Part shown: positions 21,836 to 55,934 of the stretch, piece by piece
How positions within the stretch are numbered: position 1 is the stretch's first letter
Layout of the letters: every line of letters begins with the position of its first letter
IMG/VR virus record: IMGVR_UViG_3300045963_000101
DNA from: a virus
DNA length: 64,000 bases
Strand: one strand, 5' to 3'
Program-made: the position numbers and the translations under genes
Notes under the pieces: model-generated
The model's input: the letters and a program-made list of their open reading frames with translations, nothing else
Databases searched by the model: none
What the model was told of the DNA's origin: nothing

Positions 21836-21844
21836 GGAGTCCAC

Positions 21845-24800
21845 ATGGGGCCACTATCCGCAAAGCAACATCGGGAATACCTGAAGTTCGCAGCTAAAGA
21901 AAAACGCGAAAGCGACAAACAAGAAAATGAAGAATCCCGTAAGGAAGAGCTTCATGAATTGAAACTCATGGCTGAAGCTAATAAAACAAATCAAGCTCTT
22001 GGTCATAAAGAAAATGAACACAAAGCCAAGATGTCTGAGCATGGTGGTCCTTTGAGTGCAGGTATGCTTGTGGGTAACGTTGGTATTGAACCAGTTAATC
22101 CTGATCCATTGACCTTTACGACTCGTCAAGGACATGGTAGTCAACTTACTCGCGGTCAGGGATACGCCAATGGTGGTCCTGTTATGGGTAATCCCCTCAG
22201 CGGACGTCCTCATGTAGGTGGTAAACCTCTTGGCCGTCACCCTGTACAACCAACCGATGTAGTACCCGCAATGTTAACTCCCGGAGAAGCTGTCATTCCT
22301 CGGGCCGCTGCTCAAGACCCTCGTAATAAGCCAATCATCAATCAAATGGTTCAGCAAGGACGGGCACAGCAAGGAATGCCTTCTCAGGGCTTTGCTAATG
22401 GCGGTATGGTTCCTCAAGGAAATCCTGTAGGTGCTTCTGGACTTACCGGACGCGTACAACTGCAGAATCAACTGGCTATAATGCCTAATGTTGGACCCAA
22501 GAAACACAAGATGGGTTTTGCAGATGGTACTACAGAAGTTCCTGTTACGGCTCCCGTTAATGAATCTTACATGGATAAACTTAAACGGGTATTTTCTCCG
22601 GCACCATCTATGGTAACACTACCTGAGTTTGGTGGTATGCTTGGACAAGCAAAAGAAGCTTTGAAGACCCGTACAAAAAAGATTGATGATAACATTGACA
22701 AGCAGGTTAATGGTTATGCGGATGGTGGGTATGTACAGGGCTATGCTGCTGGTGATCAATCGGTAAGCGCCGCTTCGGAAGCTGGCGATGTTGATTGGAA
22801 CGCTATCAATCAAAAGCTAAATGGAGGCGTTCCTCAAACTGCCTACACTCGCCCGCAATTGCAAACAGAAGTTCCCGTTGTTTACACTCAACCTCAAGGT
22901 GTTACCGTTACTGCCCCTTTAGCTAGTGGTCTCACAGAAGGTCAGACTATGTCCCGTGAGTCAGGTGGGAATGTTCTTGCTAAAAACCCTAAATCTACCG
23001 CTTTTGGGTTATACCAAATGACAGATGCGGCTTGGAAAGATGCAGAGGGTATTGATAAAACGTTGATTGGAGCTAATCATACAGACGCTTCCGTTCAAAA
23101 GAAAGCTTATGATGCTTATCGGGGCAATGCTTTACCAAATCAACTCAAGGCTTTAAATTATATTCCTGACAATGATAGTTTGGGTAAGGCATATATTGTT
23201 GGTGCATCCGGCTATGATAAAATTGCCAAGGCACCTGACAACACACCTCTTGACAAAATACTTCCTTCGTGGGTTATGGAGAAAAACCCTAACCTTGTAG
23301 GTAAAACAAGTACAGAGTTTTTATATGGTAAAGATCCATACAGTATTAAAACAGGTTCTCTTAAAGAAGCAACTTTAGCGGAACGCCGTTCTGGTATGAC
23401 TCATACAGGTAAGGGTGTTCCTCCAATTGATAATGTGATTCAGCAGGGAGCTAATGCAGCGGCGACAGAGCCTACTCCAGAGCTTGCAACAAACCTAGGT
23501 ATTCCTGATTCAGGTACCTTTGCATCGACTAAGCCAAACATGGACGGATTACCTTCAAACGAAGTACCACCTCCTGCAGGAAGTATTTCAGCAGCGGATC
23601 AGAATAACTTTGATTCTTTTATCTCCTCATTTACCAAGGACAATCAAGACGCTTTGCAAGACGCCGAAAAGAAAGCTGCAACAGTTCCTCCCGAACAAAA
23701 GAAATCTTTTTGGGAAGGTGTTTTGGGTGATTTGTATGGTGGTAAAGATAGTATTTTCAATCAAAAAGATCTTATTCGGTTTATTGGTGGGGCCGCTTTT
23801 CGTGCTGCTACCGGTGATAATATTAATCGTGCTCTTCGCGGTGCATCTATTGATACCATTAATACTTCAGACAAGCGTCATCAAACAGAGATTCAATTTG
23901 AAAATCAAAAAGATATTCAAATGGGTACTGCTAAAATGTGGGAAAACCGAGATGATGTTCGTATTAAAGCGGCTCAAGAAGGAGCTGCCGCAGCCGAACG
24001 TAAGGCTATGTACGGCAAGTATACTCCGGAATCTATTCATACATACAACGTAGCAACTAAGAGTGACCCTAACGGTGACTATATGCATTTGTTGGAGCCT
24101 GTTAAAAAGGGTTACAAAGGCATGTCTACTCCTGAGGATGTCACCTTTTCTAGTGGCCCTCTAAGAGGGGTATTGATTAAGAAAACTGTAGGGCAAGATG
24201 ACGAAGGTAACCATCAGATATTCTATAATGGAATTCCTGAAAGCGAATTTTATAAACGTTTATCTAGTGGCAAAGATGATTCCTTTAAGACAGGATTAAT
24301 GAATACACCAATGGTAACTTGGAATGACGACAAACACGGTCCGCAAGCTGTTGCTAAAAACTATAATGCATTGGCACCTACATGGTCCAAGTCAGCAGAA
24401 GAAGAATATTCGGAGATTGCAAAGGGTAGAGATGGTACAGGACATGCAGGTTTACCTACCCCAACAGCCTTCAGTAATTCTGCGATTTCCTTTTACAAGA
24501 GTCGTGGATATGACCCTACCGATGCAAATCAAAATTTGGCTATGCATGCTATTAATACTATTGCTTTGAAAGATATGGTTGCAGATAAGAAGCAAGGACG
24601 TACTGTAGAAGATCCCTCTGTATACTTAGCTAAATCAATGCTGATTGCTGACTCTGGAATTAATAAGGATGCTTTTTCTGTAGGTAATAAATCGATGAAC
24701 CCTGGCTTAATTAAAAACCTTGAAGATAAATTGAATGCTCAAATTATTAAAGAGAACAATGGTAAGCCATTAGAAGTTTCAGAGATTACTAAATTACGGT

Positions 24801-24925
24801 CAGACAAACTAAAGAAGATGTATTCAACATGGAGTAATCCAGATACAGCATCTCGTATGCCTTCTGGTAGTGCTACCACCTCAGGCTTCTATCAATACGT
24901 TGATCAACAATTAGGTTCAAAATAA
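21845..24925 (+). CDS. Ejection protein with lytic transglycosylase/lysozyme-like domain
   Basis: MSRESGGNVLAKNPKSTAFGLYQMTDAAW (catalytic E plus GLYQ motif, ~22950-23040); TDVVPAMLTPGEAVIP motif; AAGGAG RBS. Confidence 0.75.
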   Translation: MGPLSAKQHREYLKFAAKEKRESDKQENEESRKEELHELKLMAEANKTNQALGHKENEHKAKMSEHGGPLSAGMLVGNVGIEPVNPDPLTFTTRQGHGSQLTRGQGYANGGPVMGNPLSGRPHVGGKPLGRHPVQPTDVVPAMLTPGEAVIPRAAAQDPRNKPIINQMVQQGRAQQGMPSQGFANGGMVPQGNPVGASGLTGRVQLQNQLAIMPNVGPKKHKMGFADGTTEVPVTAPVNESYMDKLKRVFSPAPSMVTLPEFGGMLGQAKEALKTRTKKIDDNIDKQVNGYADGGYVQGYAAGDQSVSAASEAGDVDWNAINQKLNGGVPQTAYTRPQLQTEVPVVYTQPQGVTVTAPLASGLTEGQTMSRESGGNVLAKNPKSTAFGLYQMTDAAWKDAEGIDKTLIGANHTDASVQKKAYDAYRGNALPNQLKALNYIPDNDSLGKAYIVGASGYDKIAKAPDNTPLDKILPSWVMEKNPNLVGKTSTEFLYGKDPYSIKTGSLKEATLAERRSGMTHTGKGVPPIDNVIQQGANAAATEPTPELATNLGIPDSGTFASTKPNMDGLPSNEVPPPAGSISAADQNNFDSFISSFTKDNQDALQDAEKKAATVPPEQKKSFWEGVLGDLYGGKDSIFNQKDLIRFIGGAAFRAATGDNINRALRGASIDTINTSDKRHQTEIQFENQKDIQMGTAKMWENRDDVRIKAAQEGAAAAERKAMYGKYTPESIHTYNVATKSDPNGDYMHLLEPVKKGYKGMSTPEDVTFSSGPLRGVLIKKTVGQDDEGNHQIFYNGIPESEFYKRLSSGKDDSFKTGLMNTPMVTWNDDKHGPQAVAKNYNALAPTWSKSAEEEYSEIAKGRDGTGHAGLPTPTAFSNSAISFYKSRGYDPTDANQNLAMHAINTIALKDMVADKKQGRTVEDPSVYLAKSMLIADSGINKDAFSVGNKSMNPGLIKNLEDKLNAQIIKENNGKPLEVSEITKLRSDKLKKMYSTWSNPDTASRMPSGSATTSGFYQYVDQQLGSK

Positions 24926-24934
24926 AGGAAACTT

Positions 24935-27900
24935 ATGGTAACGGAAAAGGACATTGTTAATGATTCATTAACGGCACAAGGGGTACCGCCTCTTCCGTTG
25001 CCTCCTGAACAAAAATCCCTGATATTTAAAGACGGTGATACTGCAGTAGATACCACTACGGGTAAAACAATTCGTATTGGTAATCTCAATACTCTTGAAA
25101 CTCAAAAGACAGGTAGTAAAGCCTCTGACTTTAAAGCAGGTCAGTTAGGTGGAGATGCACAGACAGCCATTGGGGAGGCTGTAGCTCAAAGAGAAAATTT
25201 TACACAGCCAACATATCGAAACAGTAAAGATAAATACACCCGCGAGTTGGGTACATTGTCTAATCCTGATACAGGAGATAATTATTCAGATTATATGATA
25301 CGGAATAGGTTGGCAGACCCTTACATGGTGTCTCCAAACTCTTCTGCTATCGACCAACGATCAGCTACTGATCTTAATAATGCCAGAGACGCTGCTCAAT
25401 GGAAGCCAAAAAGCTATGCTCAAAACCTTCTTACTGCTCTTAACGATGTAAGAAATCTACAACCACTTACCGCCAAGGTATACGCACCTACTGCACAAAT
25501 GTATGGCGACAGCCTTGATGAAAGAGGTAACAGTAAGTACTATGCCGGACCCGCAACAATAGGTCCTGATGAAAACTATAGGGGTGAAGCTCGAAATCAG
25601 CTCACCGCTGGCCTAAACTTAGGTACCATGAGTATGAACCAAGGTGCTTGGAATGCTTTAGATATGCTAGGTTCTGTTACTGGCTCTAAGGGTATGCAAG
25701 AGTATGCTCAAGAAAAATCAGGCAATTACCGTTATGATTTAGAGAATACCCCAAGACTTCGTAATGCAGAGGCCTTTGATGAAAATGGCAAATGGAAGCT
25801 AGACTCATTCAGTAAAATGAGTGACTATGCAATTGGACTTGCCGCATCTTCTTTGCCGCAGATGGCACTGTCTGCAGGTTCCATGCTACTGTCTCCAATT
25901 ACTTTTGGAACTTCAAATGCTATACCTGCATTAGTATTCGCCGGACAAACTTGGGAGAACCAACCTAAGGACTCTAAGGATGTGGGATGGGCACTAGCTT
26001 CAGGTGTTACTCAGCAGGTGTTGGAGAATTTATCTTTAGGCCACATTAAAGGAAACATTCTTAAGAAACCAACCCAAGATAGGGTTATCGCAGAACTAGC
26101 TGCGAAAGGGTATTCGGAGTCAGCGGCAAAAGATCTTGTTGTTACTGAAACTCAGTTAGCACTTAAAGGTGTTTCTACGTGGACCAAGAGTGTAGCTATT
26201 AAAGAAGCTGAAGACGCAGCTAAAAAAGTTACAGCTAAATCTTTAGCTTACCACACTGGCCACGGTATTGTTTCAGAAGGTATTACTGAAGCATTACAAG
26301 AAGCAACTCAATACATAGGCGAACAAAGAGGGTTCAATCTTCCAGACAACCCTGAAGATATGTATGCTTTACAAAACCGGATTCTTAATGCCGGTGCTGG
26401 TGGTGCTGTCTTAGGTGGTGTGTTTAGTGGTGGGGGCCATGCGCTGGCCTCTACCCTAGGAAAGTCTGCTCAACGTTCATCCACAAGCGATCTTGATATC
26501 CGAAACCAATTAATGGGTGGTCTTAATTTTGTTCCACACAGTGAGGACGTAGCGAATGATGCCGTTAAAAACATGGCTAATGATGCATCGACTCTAAAAG
26601 AAATGGCTCAGAGTGAAACCGATAAGCGTAGGAATTCTGGCTTGGGTGGCGGTATTGTTGATTGGTTTAAAGAGAAGGGACTTAACAGTACTTGGCAGAA
26701 GTGGGCAACTACTATCAGAGGTAGTGACACTGGAGGGATGAACCTCAATGCTATTTGGACTTTGATTGGCGCGGCAAAAACTTTAAACGGTGGTTCTATT
26801 GAAGAACAACAATCAGGTGTCTTGCACAGACTGTCCAATGCATTTGGTTCTCCCGACGATATCCGTGCTGCTTTCGGTGGTAAGCTAAAGTTGTCTGAAA
26901 TTAAAAACATGATGTCTAATCCAGAGCTTAAAGAAGACTTTAGTAATCTCATGAAAATGATGGAATCCCATGGTCTTACGGCACAGCAAGCCTTTGAAAG
27001 AATGTCTGGTGTATTTAGAAGCCAGCCAGAGCACACCTCTGCTTTGGTGGGTATTGCTGATCGATTTAACTCTTTATTGAATGAACATGGAAAGATTACT
27101 GGTAGTCGTATGACTGCAGACGACTTCTTTAACATGGCACCACTCAACAAAAATGCTATTGCTCAAAACACAAGTGGCTTTATAACGAAGCTTAAAAATG
27201 TATTAGGTATGGATTCGGCTGCAGCAAATGAGTTAGCTAATCGGTATTTAAACTCTAATGATATAGTCACGTTGTTGGACCCTACAGATGACGCCCTTAG
27301 TGCTATGCTGGATGATTATGCCCGTACAAGTAAAGAATCAATTACTTCTTTGCGTACTAAGCTTAACCAAAATAAATCTGAGTTCAGTGAATTCTTACAC
27401 AATGACCCTTTGGAAAATGCTTATGCTCTTGCAGCTAAAGGTGCCGCCACGTTTGTACATCAGAATCTAATAGGTAAAGATGGATCCAAGTTAGCTGCCC
27501 TAATTAAACAAGCGGTTGCCACAAAAGAAATTGGTAGTGAACGTGCTTCTTTTATTGCAAAAGAATTAAAGGATTACCTTGATATGCGTAATGGGGTGTA
27601 TCATCCTATTACAAACAAGTATGCTAAAGGAGCACTTCAGTTGGTAAACTTCTTATCGACAGTAAGCTCACTACCTTTAGCAGCTATAAGCTCATTAACA
27701 GAGTTTTCTCAGGTATATCGGCATCTTAATACTGAGCAATCACTTAAGGCTACTAAAGCAATTCTAAAAGGTTTTGGTGCAGAGTTTGCTAATGCTATGC
27801 AGATTATTGGCGGAAAACCACAATCAGAATCAGTTAAGAATTACCGTAACAGTTTGTTTGAAGCGGGATTTCCTGTGGACGGATCGATGGCGCAGCGACA

Positions 27901-28756
27901 AGACATTGTTACTGATGCTTACCGTAAATGGACTGAAGGATTTTTTAAGATGACTGGTTTAACTTCTGTTACAAACGTAACAAGGTACGCCAAGCTCTCG
28001 ATAGGTGCGGATGCAATCAAGAGTTGGGTTGATGCTGTTAATGGTAATAATCCGCAAGCTAAACAAAATGCCATGGAGCATTTGATTCGTGTAGGGGTTG
28101 ATGCTGAGTGGATATCGTCAGCTGATATGAGTATTCCTGCTAACAAGGAAAGATTAGCTCATGAATTTAGTACAGGCACCCATAACTTTACTGTTGAGGC
28201 GGTAATCCATCCCACAAAAATGAACCGTCCTAAGTTTTATAGTGATCCTTATCTGCAGCTATTCACTCAATTTCAAGGGTATACCTCGGCTTTTACTGCG
28301 AATGTGCTACCGATGCTCCTTAAAGATCTTAGAAAGAGTGGATCCGCAGATCAAGTAAACGCAGCAGCAACTATTGCTATGATGTTTGCTCTCTCATACT
28401 TTGCTCTGTACCTAAAAGATATTATTAAGTATGGTGAATCCCCACCACCTTGGCTCAAAGAAGAGCAGAGGTTTCAAAGGTATATTGGGCAAGTTGGTTT
28501 GACAGGTACTGGTCAAAGAATTTGGGATGCGGTTAACCCTGTTATTCCACAATCAAACCAGAAACAATCTTTTGGAATGAGCGTATTGAATGGTGTTGTT
28601 GATCAGGCACCAGCGCTATCATATCTCTCAAAGGTTAATGATGCTATATCTGCATCTGACGGTAAACGTATTGAAAAAGCGGCGAGAACACTACCTATTG
28701 TAGGTACCTCGTCTTTGTTTGCAAAGAAATTGCAAAAAGAACTTGGAGATAATTAA
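24935..28756 (+). CDS. Large ejection protein with N-terminal SNase-like domain
   Basis: DGDT, IRIGNLNTLET and DKYTR align with thermonuclease motifs; Gly/Ala hydrophobic segments centrally; position in the ejection cluster. Confidence 0.7.
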   Translation: MVTEKDIVNDSLTAQGVPPLPLPPEQKSLIFKDGDTAVDTTTGKTIRIGNLNTLETQKTGSKASDFKAGQLGGDAQTAIGEAVAQRENFTQPTYRNSKDKYTRELGTLSNPDTGDNYSDYMIRNRLADPYMVSPNSSAIDQRSATDLNNARDAAQWKPKSYAQNLLTALNDVRNLQPLTAKVYAPTAQMYGDSLDERGNSKYYAGPATIGPDENYRGEARNQLTAGLNLGTMSMNQGAWNALDMLGSVTGSKGMQEYAQEKSGNYRYDLENTPRLRNAEAFDENGKWKLDSFSKMSDYAIGLAASSLPQMALSAGSMLLSPITFGTSNAIPALVFAGQTWENQPKDSKDVGWALASGVTQQVLENLSLGHIKGNILKKPTQDRVIAELAAKGYSESAAKDLVVTETQLALKGVSTWTKSVAIKEAEDAAKKVTAKSLAYHTGHGIVSEGITEALQEATQYIGEQRGFNLPDNPEDMYALQNRILNAGAGGAVLGGVFSGGGHALASTLGKSAQRSSTSDLDIRNQLMGGLNFVPHSEDVANDAVKNMANDASTLKEMAQSETDKRRNSGLGGGIVDWFKEKGLNSTWQKWATTIRGSDTGGMNLNAIWTLIGAAKTLNGGSIEEQQSGVLHRLSNAFGSPDDIRAAFGGKLKLSEIKNMMSNPELKEDFSNLMKMMESHGLTAQQAFERMSGVFRSQPEHTSALVGIADRFNSLLNEHGKITGSRMTADDFFNMAPLNKNAIAQNTSGFITKLKNVLGMDSAAANELANRYLNSNDIVTLLDPTDDALSAMLDDYARTSKESITSLRTKLNQNKSEFSEFLHNDPLENAYALAAKGAATFVHQNLIGKDGSKLAALIKQAVATKEIGSERASFIAKELKDYLDMRNGVYHPITNKYAKGALQLVNFLSTVSSLPLAAISSLTEFSQVYRHLNTEQSLKATKAILKGFGAEFANAMQIIGGKPQSESVKNYRNSLFEAGFPVDGSMAQRQDIVTDAYRKWTEGFFKMTGLTSVTNVTRYAKLSIGADAIKSWVDAVNGNNPQAKQNAMEHLIRVGVDAEWISSADMSIPANKERLAHEFSTGTHNFTVEAVIHPTKMNRPKFYSDPYLQLFTQFQGYTSAFTANVLPMLLKDLRKSGSADQVNAAATIAMMFALSYFALYLKDIIKYGESPPPWLKEEQRFQRYIGQVGLTGTGQRIWDAVNPVIPQSNQKQSFGMSVLNGVVDQAPALSYLSKVNDAISASDGKRIEKAARTLPIVGTSSLFAKKLQKELGDN

Positions 28757-31700
28757 TTGATTAATTCGAATATTAAAACTAATCAGGGGCCGTTGGTTCC
28801 TGCTTTAGATCCTGCTAAGATACTGCCTAATTCGTTGACACAACAAGGTCTCCCTGTTCCTACTTCTGCTCTTGATTATGCAAGGCAAAATGCAACAGCG
28901 GATATTCCTCAGAATACGCAGTCTACTGGTAGTGCTAATGCAGGTCCAGTACCAATGCCCTCGCAGGATCAAGCTCCTGATAACCGTCATGCATGGTATT
29001 CTGATCCAACAGATCGTTGGGAAGGTGTCCATGTCAATGATGAGTCTATGCTTGCACCTCAGGAGGAAGGCCCAACGCAGATTGGCTCACCACAGGTGGA
29101 TATGATGGGCAAAAACGGTATGCCTCTTACCTATGATCAAGCTCAACAACTTCAAAATAAAGAAGTAGAAGATCAATATCAACGGGCTAAAGGTATTAAT
29201 TACGATTATACTACCGAAGCTCAAATGGAGGAAGCATTCCCACAGAAGACTATGTTGGGTGCGCCTATTTCTAATATCAGTCAGCGAGAGCAACTAGTTA
29301 GCTTAGCCAAGGATTTAGGTCAAAGCTTGATTGACACTTCGGTTCAGACAAATCGAGATGGGTTTGGTCCGGCCAAGAGTATGTCAGCAATGACTCAAAT
29401 TACTTCTTCGTTTGGTATCACACCAGTCCAAGCGGCTAATAAGCTGGCAGTGGCAACAAGCCTAATGCTACCTGTATTTAAGGGCGCTACTGATATGGAG
29501 AACGGTGTCATTCAAGATAAAGATACCTTAGACTTGATGTCGTATCTTACTGACTTTGATGGTGCTCCTCTCAATACTGAAGTGTCAGTTATGTCGGGTG
29601 GGCTCTTAGCAGAACCTACATTTAGTATGCTTGCTTCTGCCTTTACTAAGCTTAATGAAAGAGAACATGTAAATGGAGCAGGACAACCCGTACGTGTAGC
29701 ATACAATGGTATTCCTGCAGAAGTTCTTGGCCCTATTTTAGCTGATTCCCTTGTTGATAATGGTGTATTAGTTAAACTAAAAGCAGATGACGGTGTTACT
29801 GATCTCTATCGGGTTAGCCCTATGAGGGGTAATGAAATATACAAAGCTTCTAGGATGGTTGCACAAGTAGCTCTTGAAGCTGGTCGTGGTCGTGCTCAGA
29901 AAGTACCTGTTACTTCTGAAGGTCGTTACTCAGGTGCTGCAAATAGTTTCAGAGAAAAAGAGATATATCGTCCCGGAGCAGAACCTTTTTATGAGAAACA
30001 AGAGCTGGCTCGAGTCTTTGGTAGTGTAGGTATAAATGTTTCTGGTGTACGTATTCACCTTGCAAACCTTTTGCTGAATAATGCTTTGGGTGAACTTCAT
30101 AAGGGAGCTACTCAAGTAAGTACTGAGACAAATCCTGCTCGACAGTTTGGTCAGGCTACTGAAGGATTACCTTCCACAATGAGCTTGTTTAATCTTTCTA
30201 CGAAAGACAATCACGATGCTATCTTAGCTAAGACAACTACGGCTATTAAGCAAATGAATTATATGGGTCAGCATCTGGTTGCGAACACCCCGTTGTACGC
30301 TCCGGTTAAATTTGACCCTACTTCAATGCGAGCTATTAATGATACTGATGATTTGAATTACCAGTCAAGTAAGCTTGTACGTGGTTTGATTAGCCCTCAC
30401 CGGACTCCATTAAATGTTTCTAAAACAAATCTTCATATGCAGCCTATATCGGTTGAATCTGCTAAGGCGTTCTATGAAGATCTTAACCGTAAGATCATTG
30501 CAGGTACTGCAGGACCGGTAACAGACTATGAAGCAGAGCTAGGGTTTCTTGCAGCATTAGGTAACAACCTTGATGTTCATAAAACAATTGGTCTTAAAGA
30601 TGGTACTACTATGCCGTGGTCTAAAATGGCTTTGGTTACTCCAGACTTCTTGCTTAAAGCTGCTCGTAAAGGAGCGATCCTTGCTTCTATTGCACCTCAA
30701 TCAAGTAAAGAGGTTGCAAGTAAGGCTTTAGATATGACAACGTTTGCTCAGACACTTACGCCGGAGCAACAACAAGTTCTTACCGAGTTTATTGAAGAAG
30801 CCAGTGATAAAAACTGGGGCTTTAAGCTTGCCGCTTATTTGGATGCTGCTAATTATCTTACATCTAAAAAGAATGGTACACCTTTTACTCCTAGTTTGGT
30901 GACTGAGATTGATCAGAACTCAGCAGGACGGGCGTTTTCTGCGCTGGATTCAGGGGATGAGACTGTTCTTGATCGTACGGGCTTTTTCTACCCTACAGTT
31001 GGGAGCTTACATTACAATACTAAACCTTTAGGATCCCCAAGAACTCTTTATGCTAGGTATGCTGAGAATGAGTCGGTTGATTTGGCTATATCTGATGACA
31101 AGCCAGATCTCAAGAATGCTTGGAAAGAAATATTCAAGGTTCTTCAACAGCCAGAGAATGTTAAAATGATGGATAGGTTTGGCAAGCCACCATTGATGAC
31201 TACAGATTATGGTATGCCTGTTAATTATCATTTAGGGGAATCAAAAGCTTTTTTAAGTAAGTATCCGCAGTTTGAAGCTATGCTAGCGCCTTTCTACCCT
31301 AAGATTACTGGGATAGTTCAAGATATGAATGAGATTCATACTCAAACATTGTTGAAAGCAACTAGGGCTTTGCAGCGGGATACCCCTAAAAAGTTGGTTT
31401 TCCTTTTACAGTCTGTAGGTCGTCTTCCTAGGTTCAAAGGTTTTTATGGAGAGCAAGTGCCGATTGGTGCTTTTATGTCTGTACCTAATGGGGAATACTC
31501 AGAAGTGACCGATAAGAATGGTAACACTCGAAAGATAGAGCATACACGTCGTAGAGTAGACCCGATGGCAAAGTCTAAGGCTAAAAGTGTTGAATACATT
31601 AATGACGAAGGTGATTGGGCCACAAAGCCTTTTGATCCTGCTCCGGGATCTTCGGCATCAAACTCCGTTGGCCCGTTCATGGGTCAATACCGCGAGTCTA

Positions 31701-32374
31701 TTGTTACGAACGGTACTGCGTATACAATTAACAGCAAGAAGAAACCTTCTGACATGCTGTTTGTACTATCTGTGTTTGATAATCTACTGCTTGACAGTCG
31801 TAGTTATCTGCGTGGTGTACTCACTGCTAACAACGTGGTACTACCTAAGGCTGCAGAGTTTGATTTGCCAAAAGCTATTGCCGATGATTTTACTACTCAA
31901 GTAAAAGCAGCAATGGAAGGTATTATCAATGGTCCTGCGCAAGTGGATATTGGTAAGGGCAGTCAGTACAAAGGTCTACTGCTTAATATTGATAACAGGC
32001 TGGATAAGATTCAGAAAGAGCGTCAGAATAAGGCAGAAAGAGAAACAGAAGCTGAGCGTAAGATCAGAGCTAATGCAGCTCAATTCGAACAATCAATCCT
32101 TAAAGAAGGAAGTGGCTACGTAAAGCCAGATGATCGTGGAGATGAAGTAGTTGTTTCGAAAGGACAATTACGTAAGATGTTTAACGATTTGATTTTATAC
32201 GAGTTGTTCTATCTTGATCGCAATACAGGCACATACAATACAGAGGCTACTAAAAGAGACGGACATCAAACTGTCCTTGCTCGATGGGTCGCTGAAAGTA
32301 AAAATTCTCGAATGAGATTCTTGCCTATGATTAAGAAGAATGCTTCTGAAGCTAAAAACAGTTTCATGGACTAG
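28757..32374 (+). CDS. Putative virion-associated single-subunit RNA polymerase (N4 vRNAP-like catalytic core)
   Basis: LNYQSSKLVRGLI; motif A EIDQNSAG; motif B KPPLMTTDYG; motif C SVFDN, in the correct order and spacing. TTG start with GGAG 8 nt upstream; last gene of the structural arm. Confidence 0.8.
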   Translation: MINSNIKTNQGPLVPALDPAKILPNSLTQQGLPVPTSALDYARQNATADIPQNTQSTGSANAGPVPMPSQDQAPDNRHAWYSDPTDRWEGVHVNDESMLAPQEEGPTQIGSPQVDMMGKNGMPLTYDQAQQLQNKEVEDQYQRAKGINYDYTTEAQMEEAFPQKTMLGAPISNISQREQLVSLAKDLGQSLIDTSVQTNRDGFGPAKSMSAMTQITSSFGITPVQAANKLAVATSLMLPVFKGATDMENGVIQDKDTLDLMSYLTDFDGAPLNTEVSVMSGGLLAEPTFSMLASAFTKLNEREHVNGAGQPVRVAYNGIPAEVLGPILADSLVDNGVLVKLKADDGVTDLYRVSPMRGNEIYKASRMVAQVALEAGRGRAQKVPVTSEGRYSGAANSFREKEIYRPGAEPFYEKQELARVFGSVGINVSGVRIHLANLLLNNALGELHKGATQVSTETNPARQFGQATEGLPSTMSLFNLSTKDNHDAILAKTTTAIKQMNYMGQHLVANTPLYAPVKFDPTSMRAINDTDDLNYQSSKLVRGLISPHRTPLNVSKTNLHMQPISVESAKAFYEDLNRKIIAGTAGPVTDYEAELGFLAALGNNLDVHKTIGLKDGTTMPWSKMALVTPDFLLKAARKGAILASIAPQSSKEVASKALDMTTFAQTLTPEQQQVLTEFIEEASDKNWGFKLAAYLDAANYLTSKKNGTPFTPSLVTEIDQNSAGRAFSALDSGDETVLDRTGFFYPTVGSLHYNTKPLGSPRTLYARYAENESVDLAISDDKPDLKNAWKEIFKVLQQPENVKMMDRFGKPPLMTTDYGMPVNYHLGESKAFLSKYPQFEAMLAPFYPKITGIVQDMNEIHTQTLLKATRALQRDTPKKLVFLLQSVGRLPRFKGFYGEQVPIGAFMSVPNGEYSEVTDKNGNTRKIEHTRRRVDPMAKSKAKSVEYINDEGDWATKPFDPAPGSSASNSVGPFMGQYRESIVTNGTAYTINSKKKPSDMLFVLSVFDNLLLDSRSYLRGVLTANNVVLPKAAEFDLPKAIADDFTTQVKAAMEGIINGPAQVDIGKGSQYKGLLLNIDNRLDKIQKERQNKAERETEAERKIRANAAQFEQSILKEGSGYVKPDDRGDEVVVSKGQLRKMFNDLILYELFYLDRNTGTYNTEATKRDGHQTVLARWVAESKNSRMRFLPMIKKNASEAKNSFMD

Positions 32375-32375
32375 C

Positions 32376-32421
32376 AAATAAAAACCCCTACCGGAGTAAT
32401 CCAGTAGGGGTTATTTTTTTT
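32376..32421. terminator. Bidirectional intrinsic terminator between the convergent arms
   Basis: A-tract, then AACCCCTAC-C-GGA-GTAA-TCC-A-GTAGGGGTT, then T-tract; lies between convergent stops. Confidence 0.88.
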
Positions 32422-32716
32422 ATTGACTTTGTTTGGTTAAGTTACCAATATTTTTAAGAGCATTAAGACGAAGTCGTCCGGCTTCTTCTTTAGCTGATCG
32501 CTCTGTGTGCTTAAGCCCTGTTGAGGGGTCAATCAGGTTAGGTAGATTAGTTAAATTCTTTTGATACATAGCATCTACAACGTACTGATTCATATCAGGA
32601 GTATATAGCAATTGATCGGGTATATTAATACCTGCGTTCTCCATCATATCCACTTTAAATTGATGATCAGAATAGTCTGTATCACCACGAAGATTCATTG
32701 TATTATAGCTTTTCAT
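32420..32716 (-). CDS. Hypothetical protein
   Basis: ATGA overlap with the dps stop; ends at the terminator. Confidence 0.7.
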   Translation of the reverse strand: MKSYNTMNLRGDTDYSDHQFKVDMMENAGINIPDQLLYTPDMNQYVVDAMYQKNLTNLPNLIDPSTGLKHTERSAKEEAGRLRLNALKNIGNLTKQSQ

Positions 32717-33192
32717 TTAATACTCTTTCCAATAGTTGCTTTGACTTTCCAATGTAGTTTGGAAAGGTCTTTAAGATAGTCACCTATAAACGTCTGCAGC
32801 CCACCATGAGGATCAGTCTGATCATAGATATTTTGCGCTGCATCAATCAAGATATCAATTACCTTACTGAGATCTTCAAACATATTGCTTGAAGACACCC
32901 CGCCAGACTTTGCTTCAGACAAACAGGATGCATCAATCATTGCCGCCATAGATGAGAATGGCAGAGCGTCCTGCTGACGAAGTTGTTCACCAATATCATC
33001 ATGGGCATTCCACAAGAAATCATAGATGTCATTTAGTAATGCATGATCCTGTGAGAAGGTAGAACCTTGTACAGCAAAATGATAGTAGTGTGTCTTGAAG
33101 TAAGCAACAAAGTTATCTGAGTGGAATAAACGAAGCGCGGTAATTAACCCGCTTGAAGATTGGGACGTAAGTGGTCCTCTAGATTGGGTCAT
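32713..33192 (-). CDS. dps: Dps-family ferritin-like protein
   Basis: KTHYYHFAVQGSTFSQDHALL...HDDIGEQLRQ matches the Dps signature with ferroxidase H, H, D, E. Start reassigned to ATG 33192. Confidence 0.85.
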   Translation of the reverse strand: MTQSRGPLTSQSSSGLITALRLFHSDNFVAYFKTHYYHFAVQGSTFSQDHALLNDIYDFLWNAHDDIGEQLRQQDALPFSSMAAMIDASCLSEAKSGGVSSSNMFEDLSKVIDILIDAAQNIYDQTDPHGGLQTFIGDYLKDLSKLHWKVKATIGKSIK

Positions 33193-33364
33193 GTGATGGT
33201 TCCAGTATGTAGTCGTCGTTAGGGATATATAAATAGTTTGACGTATCAATATCTTCCTGAAGCTGTTTACGTTTGTATACAGGCTCTTTCTTGCCGAAGA
33301 CAGCATCAAAGTTTGTTTCGAAGGCTTCTGCGTCGGTAGGTCGTTGCCAAGATCCTTTACTCAT
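33179..33364 (-). CDS. Small conserved phage protein
   Basis: MSKGSWQRPTD...FETNFDAVFGKK motif; start reassigned to ATG 33364. Confidence 0.65.
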   Translation of the reverse strand: MSKGSWQRPTDAEAFETNFDAVFGKKEPVYKRKQLQEDIDTSNYLYIPNDDYILEPSHDPI

Positions 33365-33602
33365 GAAGCCTCTCCGCAAGTAAGTAACCTTCAAACTTCC
33401 ATACGTTACTTAGTGCATCTTCATATGCATACTTTTCACCAAGGAACTGATTGTATTCTCCGGCGTCCACACAGGCAGAAGATCCTTCAATAGTAAATCC
33501 ATTAGCCATAGTGAGCTGACAGATGGTAGTACGACCATTAGGCAGTAATGTGTATGTTGCACCTTGAATTTTGTCAAGGATACCTTGCATTGTTACTTTC
33601 AT
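33357..33602 (-). CDS. N4 Gp49 / Sf6 gp66 family protein
   Basis: TTICQLTMANGFTIEGSSACVD...GEKYAYEDALSNVWKFEGYLL family motif. Confidence 0.8.
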   Translation of the reverse strand: MKVTMQGILDKIQGATYTLLPNGRTTICQLTMANGFTIEGSSACVDAGEYNQFLGEKYAYEDALSNVWKFEGYLLAERLHE

Positions 33603-33994
33603 TCTGTAAGCACCACAACTTTATTTGCTGCTTTTGGGAAGAAGAACTTATCTACAATGGACCAGTCCAAGTAAGGACGTCCACCAGACTTATTCTCTAC
33701 CAATGGAGCACCGAATGCAGCATCATCAATGTACACTTCAGCATAACACTTGTTGGAGCTTGTCCAGTCTTCCTGTTCAGGATCCTTTTGAATACCATAC
33801 AGCGGAATGTCATTGCGACGGAACCATGCTGCAGCTTCTTCAAGGTGATATCCACTACGCATTGTATAGAGAGTCAACAAGTGACCTGCTTCAGCAAGCT
33901 TCTTCAGAGTATCAACTGCTCCGGGAACATCTACACCTACTTCAGGGTATTCGTGCTGTACTACTGTACCATCAAAGTCTACTGCAATCTTCAT
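33599..33994 (-). CDS. HAD-superfamily phosphatase
   Basis: IAVDFDGTVV motif I, LYTMR motif II, YIDD motif IV. Confidence 0.85.
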   Translation of the reverse strand: MKIAVDFDGTVVQHEYPEVGVDVPGAVDTLKKLAEAGHLLTLYTMRSGYHLEEAAAWFRRNDIPLYGIQKDPEQEDWTSSNKCYAEVYIDDAAFGAPLVENKSGGRPYLDWSIVDKFFFPKAANKVVVLTE

Positions 33995-34122
33995 TTTTGT
34001 TCCTTTTTAATCTTACGGTTATATTCTTGACGAGCCAATGCACGATCACCGGCGGTGCGCTTGTTGGCATTATTGTGAGCCTCTTTCTTGTCACGGCTTG
34101 ATTCAATTTCTTTGTAGTACAT
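33991..34122 (-). CDS. Small basic protein (43 aa), not in ORF track
   Basis: MYYKEIESSRDKKEAHNNANKR...; AGGA RBS; fills the gap exactly with an ATGA overlap. Confidence 0.5.
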   Translation of the reverse strand: MYYKEIESSRDKKEAHNNANKRTAGDRALARQEYNRKIKKEQK

Positions 34123-34123
34123 A

Positions 34124-34393
34124 TTAATCCTTGTTAGGGTTTGTCAACCATTGTTTGAGCTTTACTTGATCCATAAACCCGACATGGGTCTTCAGCCAGT
34201 TATCATCGCTATCAATTAGAATCATAGTAGGAACTGATCGGATACCCCACTCACGAATCATGTCAGGATCTTTCTTGACATCAACCTCGACAAGATTTAC
34301 TTCAGGGAAGTCATAAGGTAGAACATCTTCGAGTACCGCTTGAAGTGCCTTACAGGGTTGGCACCAATCACCACTGAACTTAAGTATTTTCAT
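34124..34393 (-). CDS. trxA: Thioredoxin
   Basis: KFSGDWCQPCK active site and IRSVPT; start reassigned to ATG 34393; directly downstream of RNR. Confidence 0.92.
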   Translation of the reverse strand: MKILKFSGDWCQPCKALQAVLEDVLPYDFPEVNLVEVDVKKDPDMIREWGIRSVPTMILIDSDDNWLKTHVGFMDQVKLKQWLTNPNKD

Positions 34394-34404
34394 TTGTTCT
34401 TTCT

Positions 34405-36261
34405 TTAGATTGCACATGAGCCACTAGTGCAGGCTAGCATTTGAGCACCTTCTACATTATCACGGTCTTCATGAAAGAGAGACCAGTTAATTACTGGCAT
34501 GACCATATGGTTGAATTGGTCTTCATCAATCTCTTCATATGGGGCTTGTCGATATGTTCCACCGTCATCAGGTAGAAAGCTGATACCAGTGCATTCATCA
34601 AAGTGTTCATACACCCATGCGCCTACTTTCATCCATTCACTATCCTTGATAGTAATAGTTACTGAGGGTTTATGCTCGCAGTAATTACGCTGGTATGCTA
34701 ACCAAACTTCAAGGTGGTTAATAGCAGTGAGGTCATCACGGGTCATACCTTTAGCTTCTTGAGGAAAACTAAACACAACAGTTGAATCCGGCTTCATAAC
34801 GCAAGGTTCGTAAGCAACACCTTGGCTGATCAAGAACTGAGTCAAAGGATCTTTAATGTCTTGCCGGATACGCCGGATATAGTATCGGGAATGTCCGGGA
34901 TGAATACCACTGGATGTTTGAGTCAGCTGAGAGACAGTACCCTCAGGCTTCACACATGTGATAGCTGCAGAAGGATTAATCCCAAGGATCTCTGCCCACT
35001 CTTCATTTGTTTCCCGAGCTACTTGACGGAGTTCTTCAAGGACATGAGACTCAGCTTCATACAGTAAAATGTTATCAAGAATACCTGTCATAGACACACC
35101 AAGCAAACGTTCCTGCTCAGTATTCTTTTTCCAGATAGAACGGAGATAAGGGAATTCAGTCAGGGTTGACTGCATGGTTCCCATGATTGCTGCAAGTCTA
35201 ACCTTGTGCCGTAAGGATTCCATAGTATCAGAGGGAGATACGACGACTGTACTGAGATTACAGAATTGATAGGGCTTGAGGATAATTTCGCTGCAAGGGT
35301 TGGTTCCATAGTCGATGGTATCATCACGACGACCCCACTTAGCTGCTTGCTTTTGACTTGCTTCACGATTAAAGATTCCTCGTTCACCGGAGTGACTGTT
35401 GTAAATATCTAACCATTCCTTCATGAATGCACCGATAGAAGGTTTGGTATCATACACTGCAGAATTATTTGCCAGTGCTCGTTCACCATGGGTTTCCCAC
35501 CATGCGCCTGATTTAGCTGTGGCATGATCATAGTCTCCGAGATCACCCAAAGAAATCATTGCCGACCGTCTAACGCCACCGACCACCACGACTTCTCCGA
35601 TCTTGCACATGATGTCATGGGCTTCGATAGGCTTGAGTTGACGACCTTGTGCAGCTTTAAATTTTGCAATAGTATAGTCAAATAGTGAGCACAAAGGGTC
35701 TGGTCCGGATGCACGTCCACCGAAGGTCTTGAGTGGTGCTCCTGCAGGGCGTATCTTTGATACGTCCCATCGGGGAATCTCTCCGAGGAACAAATGCTTG
35801 ACAAGTGACTTATAGGCTTCACACCATCCCTCCTTAGAATCCTCTACAAGAATCGTCCGATCATAATTGGTAAGTTGTGGAATGACAGGTAGCTTGCTGA
35901 CATAACGCTGCTCACAACTAAAACCCACACCAGTTCCACAAAGGAGAATGTACATAGCCTCATCAAACGACCGACGATGATCAACAGGAAGATAACTACA
36001 ATTATAAGCAGCAACATGGGTTCTTTCTAAGGCTACACCCGCAGTCATTACCGAGCGCATACTTGGTAGGGCTTCTAGGTTGGTGATACTGGTTCCTAGA
36101 ATGTCCCAGATGGAATCATTCGGGGAGATCTTGTTGGATAGTTCTTTCTTAAAGAATTCTACCCAACGTGCTGACGTTTCAGGCCAGTCTTCCCGTCGCC
36201 CTTCCTCGGGCAAATAACGTGAGTAACGGGACTTAGCAATTATTTCTTGATATGAGTTCAT
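34405..36261 (-). CDS. nrdJ: Class II (B12-dependent) ribonucleotide reductase
   Basis: NPCSEI, TCVKPEGTVSQL, C-terminal LACTSGSCAI; no ATP cone and no nrdB/nrdG. Start reassigned to ATG 36261 (AAGGA RBS). Confidence 0.92.
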   Translation of the reverse strand: MNSYQEIIAKSRYSRYLPEEGRREDWPETSARWVEFFKKELSNKISPNDSIWDILGTSITNLEALPSMRSVMTAGVALERTHVAAYNCSYLPVDHRRSFDEAMYILLCGTGVGFSCEQRYVSKLPVIPQLTNYDRTILVEDSKEGWCEAYKSLVKHLFLGEIPRWDVSKIRPAGAPLKTFGGRASGPDPLCSLFDYTIAKFKAAQGRQLKPIEAHDIMCKIGEVVVVGGVRRSAMISLGDLGDYDHATAKSGAWWETHGERALANNSAVYDTKPSIGAFMKEWLDIYNSHSGERGIFNREASQKQAAKWGRRDDTIDYGTNPCSEIILKPYQFCNLSTVVVSPSDTMESLRHKVRLAAIMGTMQSTLTEFPYLRSIWKKNTEQERLLGVSMTGILDNILLYEAESHVLEELRQVARETNEEWAEILGINPSAAITCVKPEGTVSQLTQTSSGIHPGHSRYYIRRIRQDIKDPLTQFLISQGVAYEPCVMKPDSTVVFSFPQEAKGMTRDDLTAINHLEVWLAYQRNYCEHKPSVTITIKDSEWMKVGAWVYEHFDECTGISFLPDDGGTYRQAPYEEIDEDQFNHMVMPVINWSLFHEDRDNVEGAQMLACTSGSCAI

Positions 36262-36295
36262 ATTTCCTTGTTTTGTTTTATTATCCACCATAGGT

Positions 36296-36310
36296 TATTA
36301 GGTTCCAGCT
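36296..36310 (-). promoter_or_regulatory. Putative phage-RNAP promoter, class II motif AGCTGGAACCTAATA
   Basis: One of 5 co-oriented copies; directly after the RNAP stop and upstream of nrdJ. Confidence 0.65.
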
Positions 36311-38522
36311 AACAGAAGAAGTACTTACTTTCGTTAACTTCCTTAAGGTTAAGAGAACCAGTAGCTGGTTTAGGGAAGTCGAAAGTATCTTTATGTAGCA
36401 TCAAGGTATCCATCAGGATATCAAAGAAGTTGTCTACATCGTATTGCGCTATGAACGTCATCTTAGTTACGTCTTGGAGGAAGTCTACTTCTGAAGCATG
36501 AACACTGAAGCTATCATGCACAGCAGCAAAGGAACCATTAAAGGCCACAATTGTGTTAGCCATATGAGCAGCATCATAGCTGTGTACAACGTTAGGAGAT
36601 ATGCCGCTAGCAAAACTTCTGCGGCAAGGTACTTTTTCTCCAGTCTCTTGATTGAGAACATCAACTTTGAGTACATGCATTACTCTCCCATCTTTGTTTC
36701 CGTCGATACCTTTGATGGTACCTCGTTGTTTACGCTCGTGCTGTAGAAAGGCTTTATAGACGACAGGAAAGCCGCTTGGAGTATGCCAAGATAAAGAGTT
36801 ACGACCGTTATTAAGCTCATGTTCAGCAATCTTTTGTAAGTATTTAGTTGTTTGAAGTGGTCCGGCGCAGACAGTATTGATTGCTTCAATAAGGTTCTTT
36901 GCCAGTTCACCACACATATTCTCGTTGATACTGTACTTGACAGTATACCCTTCCATATGGCAGTCATCGTACATGTTCTTTGCAATACGATTACGTCCGG
37001 CTGAATAAGCTCGAGTCATAGACCCCCGTTTAGCAATACCCTTACGGATATGCTTCATGGGGATTTTCTTTTCGGAGAACCATTCAGGCATCAGAGTGAT
37101 AAGCTCTTTTGCTACAGCCACATAGAAGTCCTTTTGAATAGGCGTGTTAGTGAGAGAAACAAGTTCACCTGCCTGAGCATCCTTGCTCATAGCTGCCAGA
37201 TGTTGCCAGCCGTTATTGCTACCATCAATAGGTACTGGAAAGCCACTCAAGCAGGGGATACCTGCCTTTTTACAATCATAGTACTTTGTAATCTCCATAC
37301 ATACAGCGAGCCAGCTATAAGGTTTTTCCGCGTAGTCCATGATCAGCTTACGGGATGAGACATCCTTGACCATATCCATATTGTGGATGACCCATTTGTA
37401 ACGATCATCGAGTGTCATCTTATCCACGGATATAGTGTCAAGACCTTCTTTCTGCAGATAGCTTATGTAGTCTGTCTCAAAGTACTTTACCAGACGAAGA
37501 TCTTCAATAGTGAAGGATCGATTAAAGCAACTGGCTGCATGAATACATAGCCAGTAGAAGCCACGCTGATCAACCACCTTCTTATTATGAAACAAGAACA
37601 GACTACGGGCCAAGTCACTACCTTGGAATTCCAGAAAGGATTCTGCATAGTATATCCTGCCACGATAATCACAGCTGACCTCCTGATAGAATGGATAACC
37701 CTTTGACTGAACTAATTCAGCCTTGCGTACTACCTGAACATACTCAAAGTATTTACTTACCAAACGCTGCAACTTAGGATCTTTCTTTCCGGCGAATGCA
37801 GTACCGTCTGTATGGGTAAGTTTCTTGGGCAGATGCAGGTTCTCATGGTGGATATTCCATTGATGAATTTCACCGTCGGCATCTACCAAGGACAGTACTT
37901 CAGGTGGTGGGTTGCTTTGGATAGCAGTTAGCAATGGGTTGTTCAGTGCCCACGGTTGCTGACGAAGAGTCTCAAGAGCCTTTACAAATGGTCTGTCGAG
38001 ATAATCATAGAAGAGTTTTCCGTTGGTCCAACCCTTGATGAAAGGTTCTTTCGTAACTGAGCTAAATAATCCTGTGATTGGTAGAGGAGGTTCAAAGACG
38101 GTACCAATAAGTGTGGGCTTAAGATCACATGTCTGATTGACGATCCGTACCATGTAGGGAGCTTTGATCCCATTGTATTCCCTGAAGATATCAATTAGAC
38201 CGTCCTGAAGAAACGTTTCGAGTAGAAGATCACCGATGGCAAGAGTAGATTTAATGTCTGATTCATCGCCACCAATAGCCCTAACCACCCGTTTGCCAAT
38301 GAGGTCACTAGCAAAGGTAAGCTTGACGGTTGCAGTAAATTTTGCATTCTTGTTTCGGATACAGTATCGGAGTAAAGTATCCCAAGCTTCGTTAATAAAT
38401 CTTTCAAGTTCATACTCCCATGTTGGATAGTGTGCTAACAAACGAGCACCTTCGTTGTAGATCTTATCTGAGTTGACTACTACTTTCTCAACTCGAGCTG
38501 TGAGATAGTCTAGTGGGTTCAT
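36309..38522 (-). CDS. T7/T3-type single-subunit DNA-directed RNA polymerase
   Basis: CDYRGRIYY, FQGSDLARSL, PIDGSNNGWQH (A), KRGSMTRAY (B), PNVVHSYDAAH, VHDSF (C). Confidence 0.95.
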   Translation of the reverse strand: MNPLDYLTARVEKVVVNSDKIYNEGARLLAHYPTWEYELERFINEAWDTLLRYCIRNKNAKFTATVKLTFASDLIGKRVVRAIGGDESDIKSTLAIGDLLLETFLQDGLIDIFREYNGIKAPYMVRIVNQTCDLKPTLIGTVFEPPLPITGLFSSVTKEPFIKGWTNGKLFYDYLDRPFVKALETLRQQPWALNNPLLTAIQSNPPPEVLSLVDADGEIHQWNIHHENLHLPKKLTHTDGTAFAGKKDPKLQRLVSKYFEYVQVVRKAELVQSKGYPFYQEVSCDYRGRIYYAESFLEFQGSDLARSLFLFHNKKVVDQRGFYWLCIHAASCFNRSFTIEDLRLVKYFETDYISYLQKEGLDTISVDKMTLDDRYKWVIHNMDMVKDVSSRKLIMDYAEKPYSWLAVCMEITKYYDCKKAGIPCLSGFPVPIDGSNNGWQHLAAMSKDAQAGELVSLTNTPIQKDFYVAVAKELITLMPEWFSEKKIPMKHIRKGIAKRGSMTRAYSAGRNRIAKNMYDDCHMEGYTVKYSINENMCGELAKNLIEAINTVCAGPLQTTKYLQKIAEHELNNGRNSLSWHTPSGFPVVYKAFLQHERKQRGTIKGIDGNKDGRVMHVLKVDVLNQETGEKVPCRRSFASGISPNVVHSYDAAHMANTIVAFNGSFAAVHDSFSVHASEVDFLQDVTKMTFIAQYDVDNFFDILMDTLMLHKDTFDFPKPATGSLNLKEVNESKYFFC

Positions 38523-46613: not shown

Positions 46614-46628
46614 TACTAGGTTCCGGCT
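46614..46628 (-). promoter_or_regulatory. Putative phage-RNAP promoter, class II motif AGCCGGAACCTAGTA
   Basis: Co-oriented copy at a gene end, about 30 nt upstream of the lipoprotein start. Confidence 0.65.
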
Positions 46629-49693: not shown

Positions 49694-49786
49694 TTTTGTC
49701 CTTGTTTTGTTCAGCAAGCCAACGATTGTAGGCTGCATAATCGATTTCACCACGGTCATCGGTGAACATCTGTTTGAGTTTACCCA

Positions 49787-55824: not shown

Positions 55825-55934
55825 TGATTTGCTTTCAGAAGGACGTTGAGTGAGAGTTTTAGGAGAGAAACGAGTGTTAGAAGTAACCATGATTTAGACG
55901 GAGCCTTAAAGATATATTTTACAAAGGATTAAAA

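Follow-up and report, generated by a model that had tools for sequence, protein, structure and literature searches.

A putative injected single-subunit RNA polymerase, cryptic in sequence, accompanies a T7-like RNA polymerase in a CRP-7-group podophage

Introduction

To our knowledge, injected single-subunit RNA polymerases (RNAPs) have so far been tied to N4-like phages with their gp50 of 3500 amino acids (aa). Here we describe two single-subunit RNAPs encoded in a window of 64,000 nucleotides (nt), the whole stretch analysed, from the IMG/VR virus record IMGVR_UViG_3300045963_000101. One, called here the terminal RNAP, is a protein of 1205 aa encoded by the last gene of the plus-strand arm (28757-32374), directly behind giant genes of ejection type. 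The other is a T7-like enzyme of 737 aa encoded on the minus strand (36309-38522). We ask how this pair compares with the systems described so far, and whether the terminal RNAP may travel in the virion.

In the N4 ejectosome, gp52, gp51 and gp50 form the outer-membrane, the periplasmic and the inner-membrane or cytoplasmic parts, respectively (PMC13434306), and gp50 takes the place that gp16 has in T7 (PMC13434306). For phage StenR_269, a virion RNAP (vRNAP) was guessed from size, helicity and absence of cysteine alone (PMC10747016). In Roseobacter phage CRP-7, the phage that is most relevant here, Zhang et al. (2019) recognised only the open reading frame (ORF) ORF30 as an RNAP, and gp33, gp34 and gp35 were listed as "hypothetical" (PMC6918029). 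Phages of the CRP-7 type are reportedly widespread in marine viromes (PMC6918029); the present window is from wetlands. In the literature outside subscription journals, we found no paper on the family of the terminal RNAP or on the two-RNAP arrangement.

The terminal RNA polymerase

The terminal protein (P0001), which is read from a TTG start, had no match in Pfam (E 0.01) or PHROG and none in the PDB by sequence, and a tblastn search against 50,697 phage records found nothing. An exhaustive search recovered 86 cluster representatives of its family, nearly all of 1100-1400 aa. Fifteen family members had no Pfam match even at E 1, PF00940 included, and a 15-member profile of the family found nothing in the PDB. 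Comparison of a shallow terminal-protein profile with single sequences in hhalign gave a mere hint at motif A (E 0.034), and BFVD returned generic single-subunit RNAP matches alone (template-modelling score 0.3-0.45), with no close predicted structure. The homology to single-subunit RNAPs is visible by profile-profile comparison and fold only.

At the profile level, hhalign aligned the terminal family with 12 canonical phage RNAPs over 608 columns (probability 97.6%, E 4.4e-12). The catalytic residues R525, D719, K810, Y818-G819, Q977 and D1008 of the terminal RNAP were paired with R425, D537, K631, Y639-G640, H784 and D812 of T7 RNAP, respectively. The Arg of T7 R627 is not kept at its position, and the window has an Arg one residue later. 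In an alignment of 70 homologs (mean column identity 15%; positions in full-length numbering), nine residues are invariant (R525, R542, G639, D719, G724, G742, R762, Y818 and D1008) and two nearly so (K810 and G819). An N4-like vRNAP profile, shallow because the search with N4 gp50 found close N4 relatives alone, was matched at E 2.4e-4. Here R525, D719, K810 and Y818 were paired with gp50 R1421, D1556, K1667 and Y1675, which we take to be R424, D559, K670 and Y678 in the numbering of the mini-vRNAP. The wording QS(A/S)KLVR and K-x-PL...YG is common to the terminal RNAP and the N4-like vRNAPs. None of the Pfam families of the N4 vRNAP (PF21769, PF21894, PF21624 and PF21867) matched the terminal protein or members of its family.

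An AlphaFold2 model of the terminal protein, with the family alignment as input, reached a predicted local distance difference test (pLDDT) of 85.5 and a predicted template-modelling score (pTM) of 0.87, with disorder confined to approximately the first 95 residues. When this model was compared with the PDB by Foldseek, the top 50 matches were all single-subunit RNAPs, with the N4 mini-vRNAP in first place (E 8.5e-12) and the mitochondrial RNAPs of yeast and human and T7 RNAP next. Structural alignment with VIA-align gave Z 26.1 over 549 residues for the T7 elongation complex (spanning T7 residues 9-883), Z ~23 over ~700 residues for the mitochondrial RNAPs and Z 18.8 over 715-754 residues for the N4 mini-vRNAP, the matches covering residues ~100-1200 of the terminal model. 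The right-hand fold, with N-terminal domain, thumb, palm and fingers, thus matches solved single-subunit RNAPs over most of its length. In the model D719 lies at a strand end before a helix, Y818 at the end of a long helix and D1008 in a beta-turn-beta element, as expected of motifs A, B and C.

Taken together, profile and model indicate that the terminal protein is a real and probably active single-subunit RNAP with an intact active site. By the same comparisons it belongs to a family of its own, which shows no special closeness to N4 over T7 or the mitochondrial enzymes. An earlier note on this DNA had placed a vRNAP-like gene at the end of the plus structural arm, and the fold and catalytic motifs encoded at 28757-32374 bear this out. 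Its term "mini-vRNAP" holds for a single-subunit RNAP at the end of an ejection block and fails where it implies a special kinship with the N4 enzyme (Z ~19 for the N4 vRNAP, 23-26 for the T7 and mitochondrial RNAPs).

The disordered N-terminus (residues 1-95, 28757-29041) keeps short wording across subfamilies (M-A-x-N-V...V-P..G, with P15 and P51 invariant), and could be a packaging or ejection signal. The RNAP ORF is in frame with the upstream ORF for a protein of 1273 aa, with one TAA between them (28754-28759) and the TTG start as the next codon. This raised the idea that read-through might fuse 24935-28756 to 28757-32374. The junction varies among relatives, however, with in-frame, offset and overlapping cases, and a conserved fusion is therefore unlikely.

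The T7-like RNA polymerase

The 737-aa protein encoded at 36309-38522 (minus strand) has clear matches in Pfam (PF00940, E 1.7e-54) and among the PHROGs (phrog_414, E 1.4e-92). Its alignment with T7 RNAP runs through DYRGRIY (T7 D421-R425), PIDGSNNGWQH (D537), KRGSMTRAYS (K631, Y639) and VHDSF (D812). By family model and catalytic motifs it is a regular T7-like member, which agrees with the canonical 737-aa T7-like RNAP that the earlier note had seen in the minus arm; it is also a single protein, as that note had stressed in setting it against the two-subunit RNAPII of N4. The closest RNAP among the 50,697 phage records is that of CRP-7, with 31% identity, and no relative was found in ~185,000 bacterial and archaeal species genomes.

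Ejection-type genes and delivery with the virion

The terminal RNAP gene closes a run of six consecutive ORFs (20152-32374, plus strand) that encode 4,072 aa with 0 Cys, against 1.0-2.3% in the other cytoplasmic enzymes of the same phage; the T7-like RNAP has 13 cysteines. Freedom from cysteine is a property of the family as well, being found in 61 of 71 members (those above 1000 aa). N4-like vRNAPs (~3470 aa) have a median of 0 Cys. In CRP-7, gp33, gp34 and gp35 have 0 Cys each and the RNAP has 14.

Three small ORFs of 237, 138 and 193 aa (20152-21835) open the block; each has 0 Cys and no family matches, and we regard their products as candidates for small ejection proteins or internal proteins of the virion. 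The next gene (21845-24925) encodes a giant protein of 1026 aa, also with 0 Cys, that carries RESGGN...AFGLYQM at approximately residues 366-395, in the wording of lytic transglycosylases (ES...GLYQ). Its match to a Pfam transglycosylase is sub-threshold (E 0.084), and an Atlas lead points to viral proteins bearing an SLT domain. It also has an N-terminal motif in common with the syntenic SLT protein of the distant relative L084 (PF01464, E 1e-16). These likenesses suggest a candidate peptidoglycan-cutting ejection protein. The penultimate giant protein (1273 aa, 24935-28756, 0 Cys) combines an SNase-like N-terminus with a C-terminal region that matches phrog_6958, "virion structural protein" (E 1.5e-27). 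The SNase match is weak both here (E 0.0065) and in the L084 counterpart (E 0.0029). No similarity of this protein was found to the N- and C-terminal domains (NTD, CTD) of N4 gp50 or to gp51-53, and from its sequence we regard it as a candidate ejection protein.

Because the terminal RNAP gene stands directly behind giant ejection-type proteins and, as the strongest pointer, within the cysteine-free block, we propose by analogy with N4 that the enzyme is probably packed in the virion and injected together with the ejection proteins. The block has a promoter-like motif (class II, below) upstream and a terminator behind it. Since the phage encodes a T7-like RNAP and has promoter-like sites for its late genes, there would be no evident need of a second late polymerase, unless it is meant for the next cell.

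Promoter-like elements

A 15-nt motif, class II, with the sequence AGCYGGWACCTANTA, occurs six times where chance would give 0.09 copies, and all copies are oriented with local transcription. On the plus strand one copy precedes terL, where the structural arm begins (61529-61543), and another, with one mismatch (AGACGGTACCTAATA), approximately 500 nt upstream of the giant genes (21330-21344). On the minus strand, copies are found at the boundary of the early region and the replication arm (56427-56441), at 52113-52127, at 46614-46628, and over the stop codon of the T7-like RNAP gene (AGCTGGAACCTAATA, 36296-36310), the last being syntenic in nearly all relatives. The motif ends in CTAATA, which resembles what we take to be the end of T7-group promoters, CACTATA.

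Of 61 related IMG/VR loci, almost all carry class II with the same synteny and orientation, and so do five near-complete relatives. In these relatives the T7-like RNAP is 74-97% identical, with an almost invariant specificity-loop region, while the terminal RNAP is only 17-43% identical and hypervariable in the counterpart of that loop, with indels in the corresponding beta-hairpins. Because motif and T7-like specificity loop are constant while the terminal RNAP is hypervariable, class II is best assigned to the T7-like RNAP as its putative promoter. The same comparison speaks against the motif as a promoter of the terminal RNAP.

A second element, class I, occurs twice on the minus strand of the early region (60079-60127 and 60472-60520). 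Copy 1 consists of a hairpin with a 4-bp stem and the loop TTCTC, the block ACAGAGAGACC, and a second hairpin with the loop GGTAAGT. In its general form the first hairpin has 4 bp and the loop TTCTC, which is invariant; the block AC(A/G)GAGAGACC follows, and then the second hairpin, of 5-6 bp, with the loop GGTAAGTA. Across seven copies from five genomes, seven of the ten pairs show compensatory changes, with 95.7% pairing, and slid-partner controls collapse. By this covariation class I is a genuine structured early element, and a hairpin promoter, an RNA leader and a processing site are all candidates for its role. The idea that it is a promoter specific to the terminal RNAP is weakened, as it does not co-vary with that enzyme.

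Two relatives have different long-stem hairpins in place of class I. The early intergenic regions of G001 (L078/L079) and G004 (L077/L082) contain hairpins with 7-9-bp stems and ~9-nt loops, with compensatory changes between copies. The gaps of G003 and G005 have a GAGAGCG-N-CTTGCTCT hairpin in common. In the window, a repeated 11-mer (TGATGATATTG) proved to be coding and not a motif, an Rfam search over the early region found nothing, and, one pair aside, a rough pairwise comparison of the intergenic stretches failed to pick up the promoter classes. Sites resembling sigma-70 promoters numbered 8 in the early region against 14.8 +/- 3.6 in shuffles, with none at the start of the arm.

Genome organization

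The window represents most of the genome of a CRP-7-group podophage and is near complete, with a total of ~65 kb; the longest sequence that carries the terminal RNAP measures 64,914 bp. DNA of the phage is present in wetland and pond metagenomes. The structural arm (plus strand) starts with terL (61596-63248) and wraps round to the genes for the portal (117-1760), the scaffold (2418-3554) and the major capsid protein (MCP; 3582-4673, phrog_1328). Structural and fibre genes and the endolysin (8749-9198) follow, and finally the giant ORFs of 1026, 1273 and 1205 aa (21845-32374). A fibre-like protein of 1353 aa (ORF 11341-15402) has 66-nt (22-aa) tandem repeats and then Gly-rich repeats at 12700-14033.

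The minus arm extends from ~61.5 kb down to 32.4 kb. It begins with small early ORFs, which are followed by a gene like that for single-stranded DNA-binding protein (SSB), dCMP deaminase, DNA and RNA ligases, DNA polymerase and exonuclease, and then by primase-helicase, the T7-like RNAP and a B12-type ribonucleotide reductase (34405-36291), whose gene comes first behind the class II copy over the RNAP stop codon. The ATP-dependent DNA ligase and the adjacent RNA ligase lie at 47130-49086, and a homing-endonuclease-like ORF (49088-49759) comes after this pair.

An amidase resembling T7 lysozyme (49966-50766, minus strand) matches phrog_2252 (E 1e-41). That PHROG is annotated "endolysin; inhibits RNA polymerase", and the amidase is present besides the separate endolysin in the structural arm. 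Because of this annotation the amidase may be a regulator of the T7-like RNAP, as gp3.5 is in T7. A small gene in the replication arm (51905-52330, minus strand) encodes a PagP-like outer-membrane beta-barrel (phrog_3600, E 3.6e-10), and a Gram-negative host is therefore implied. A lone reverse-oriented gene (55935-56324, plus strand) stands between the early region and the replication arm, an arrangement that is kept in the relatives G002-G005. In relatives the gene comes with a class II motif of its own in the opposite orientation, of which the window shows a weak variant alone (55896-55910).

The convergent arms are separated by a bidirectional hairpin of the intrinsic terminator type (32383-32412, 13-bp stem), with A5 upstream and T8 downstream. 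It folds strongly in either orientation, at -19.9 kcal/mol on the plus strand and -22.5 on the minus strand (z -5.0 and -5.5). The earlier note had the arms meet at a bidirectional terminator near 32400 and saw an N4-like layout in a structural arm that ends in an RNAP and converges with a replication arm; both observations stand. Its assignment of the particle to a Kuravirus/SU10-type virion has to be given up, since phiEco32-type capsids form the weakest tier of MCP matches by tblastn (34% of the query covered, E 1e-9). CRP-7 (MCP 49%) and small podophages (tf, LUZ24-like, HTVC106P and Sulfitobacter phages; 30-36% identity) are nearer. The phage is a lytic podophage of the CRP-7 group, and we prefer this label to "Kuravirus-type virion".

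Relatives and mosaicism

In all related loci with enough flank, the terminal ORF encodes 1135-1394 aa and matches the family profile. Roseobacter phage CRP-7 (MK613349) is the nearest isolate and the only cultured relative (MCP 49%, RNAP 31% identity), and its gp33 belongs to the family of the terminal RNAP (E 2e-31); among other isolates no relative of gp33 was found. The earlier note had considered a possibly undescribed lineage. This does not wholly hold for the lineage, of which CRP-7 is a cultured member with the same layout, but it does hold for the terminal RNAP, which is unrecognised in the literature that we searched and hidden in CRP-7 under the "hypothetical" gp33. The arrangement also extends to a distant family member, P0057, which is 22% identical. 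Its gene follows those for an SLT-bearing giant protein and a giant protein of 1628 aa, at a locus convergent with a PF00940 RNAP, dCMP deaminase and primase-helicase.

When the window was compared with L003, L029, L030, L032 and L059, the terminal RNAPs were 17-43% identical where the T7-like RNAPs were 74-97% identical. The penultimate giant protein is likewise far more divergent than the backbone, with 49% identity where the RNAP has 97%. This mosaicism points to module exchange or to very fast evolution of the candidate injected proteins.

Discussion

We consider an N4-like two-polymerase programme with an injected terminal RNAP to be the best explanation of this locus, and hold it with somewhat better than even confidence. 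The programme that we infer, from packaging and injection to the use of promoters by each enzyme, the first expression of the T7-like RNAP and independence of the host RNAP, would run as follows. The terminal RNAP would be made late, from the transcription unit of the giant ejection proteins, and most likely be packed in the capsid and injected with these proteins, like N4 gp50. When the next cell is infected, transcription by this enzyme would begin at the early end of the minus arm (61.5 to 56.4 kb), and the enzyme might also help to draw the DNA in. Transcripts that reach the gene of the 737-aa T7-like RNAP would supply the second enzyme, which would drive the replication and structural arms from class II promoters, and both arms would end at the common bidirectional terminator.

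A broader proposal, which we would put slightly short of even, generalizes this programme. Marine and freshwater podophages of the CRP-7 group would pack and inject stand-alone single-subunit RNAPs of about 1.2 thousand amino acids (kaa) that are free of cysteine and form a widespread family, with at least 86 clusters at 50% identity. Together with the T7-like RNAP they would provide a programme free of host RNAP, either as the unfused counterpart of N4 gp50 or with an independent origin.

Several observations weigh against an injected early transcriptase. None of the RNA sequencing runs matches the phage. Class I follows the backbone and does not co-vary with the terminal RNAP: between G002 and G003 the elements are near-identical and the T7-like RNAPs 92% identical, but the terminal RNAPs are only ~17% identical. 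One G.T wobble in hairpin 1 fits the sense strand or RNA only, the opposite of the template-strand hairpins of N4. Three ORFs upstream of the first class I copy have no recognised promoter, and the gene of the T7-like RNAP lies 18-22 kb from the early region, so that its first expression would require long read-through or a further promoter. In addition, the sigma-70 consensus used in our search may not be that of the host, and divergent host promoters would be missed. If the terminal RNAP is injected, its exchange among phages with constant early elements would therefore mean that it initiates by DNA structure or without a sequence-specific promoter.

Some of these observations lend substance to a different scheme, in which the host RNAP starts infection, as in T7 and phiKMV. 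An injected protein with RNAP fold would then act mainly in the ejectosome, as its cytoplasmic end, or as a motor without promoter specificity that pulls the DNA in, and not as the programmed early transcriptase. Swapping or divergence of the terminal RNAP (17-43%) on a backbone whose early elements and T7-like RNAP are 74-97% alike is easier if no matching promoter is needed, and no promoter class co-varies with this enzyme. The place of N4 gp50 in the T7 gp16 position of the ejectosome (PMC13434306) also fits this scheme. We nevertheless regard this scheme as unlikely: early sigma-70-like sites are below chance and lacking at the start of the arm, the structured early elements are conserved, and the catalytic residues of the terminal RNAP are invariant, so that polymerisation appears to be under selection.

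Two further readings seem to us much less probable again. The terminal RNAP is co-transcribed with the late genes and might thus stay unpackaged and work late in the cytoplasm, for instance in the transcription of late genes or in making primers for replication or packaging. We think this improbable, given that a protein of 1205 aa without Cys, like most of its family, fits an ejection block and the N4 vRNAP, unlike cytoplasmic enzymes, that the late arm already has class II promoters, and that the place right after the ejection proteins is kept in distant relatives. Least probable of all is an exapted, catalytically inactive RNAP fold that has become a purely structural ejection protein. Such a protein might well be as divergent as this one, which Pfam and PHROG do not recognise, but R525, D719, Y818 and D1008 do not vary, and K810 and G819 hardly vary, across 70 sequences with a mean column identity of only 15%, and the catalytic residues sit in the expected elements (strand end, O-helix end and beta-turn-beta).

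If the programme with an injected terminal RNAP is right, an abundant and almost unstudied phage group has the injected-RNAP strategy in compact form, with the enzyme encoded by a gene of its own, and "hypothetical" giant genes that end podophage ejection modules can hide polymerases undetected by curated sequence libraries. The group would then offer a natural experiment on the evolution of an injected polymerase and its start sites, with an enzyme below 20% identity on a constant backbone. Biotechnology might also profit from its new set of small orthogonal RNAPs and from the 15-nt promoter class. CRP-7 gp33 would be a cultured entry to the question whether the giant N4 enzyme originated by fusion of ejection proteins with an RNAP.

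Compared with known systems, both RNAPs show ties to the T7-like phages. The 737-aa enzyme is encoded at the end of the DNA-metabolism genes, as in phiKMV, and is ~146 aa shorter than T7 RNAP. The terminal enzyme has the whole T7 fold (Z 26) and all motifs, but it does not reach PF00940 and belongs to the virion module. Furthermore, a genome of ~65 kb with two convergent arms sets this phage apart from the Autographiviridae, which have ~40 kb with all genes on one strand and an RNAP gene that is early or closes the early-middle genes. The likeness to Kuravirus, phiEco32 and SU10 consists of an MCP in the broad phrog_1328 and detection of the phiEco32 type by tblastn, whereas many other podophage groups are closer by MCP. 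RNAPs are likewise carried in the particle by phiKZ-type phages (multisubunit), the crAss-like phage phi14:2 (gp66) and P23-45 (gp96), while here this is proposed from the genes. Those enzymes are of the two-barrel, cell type, whereas the terminal enzyme is of the Pol A-type right-hand kind. CRP-7, although marine, smaller (58 kb) and distantly related, has an identical layout, with gp33 in the terminal-RNAP family and gp33-35 free of cysteine.

The comparison with N4 is the most instructive. In common with gp50 and its mini-vRNAP, the terminal RNAP has a right-hand single-subunit fold with aligned catalytic residues, a folded core of ~1100 aa and no cysteine. In both phages the structural arm closes with the ejection genes and finally the RNAP gene and is convergent with the replication arm, and a second phage-encoded RNAP of the T7 family is present. 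However, the N4 enzyme is the middle domain of a 3500-aa polypeptide, while the terminal RNAP is a stand-alone protein of ~1.2 kaa (1205 aa, 1100-1400 in the family, against 3440-3750 aa for N4-like proteins), and the giant proteins upstream have no detectable similarity to the NTD or CTD of gp50 or to gp51-53. The partner RNAP is a monomer of 737 aa here and the two-subunit RNAPII in N4, and late genes would be transcribed from phage promoters here and by host RNAP with SSB in N4. The early promoters of N4 are template-strand DNA hairpins, where the present phage has two covarying hairpins with a G.T pair that favours the sense strand or RNA. Overall, sequence, structural model and analogy together suggest that the terminal RNAP is probably a previously unrecognised, sequence-cryptic variant of the N4-type injected-RNAP strategy.

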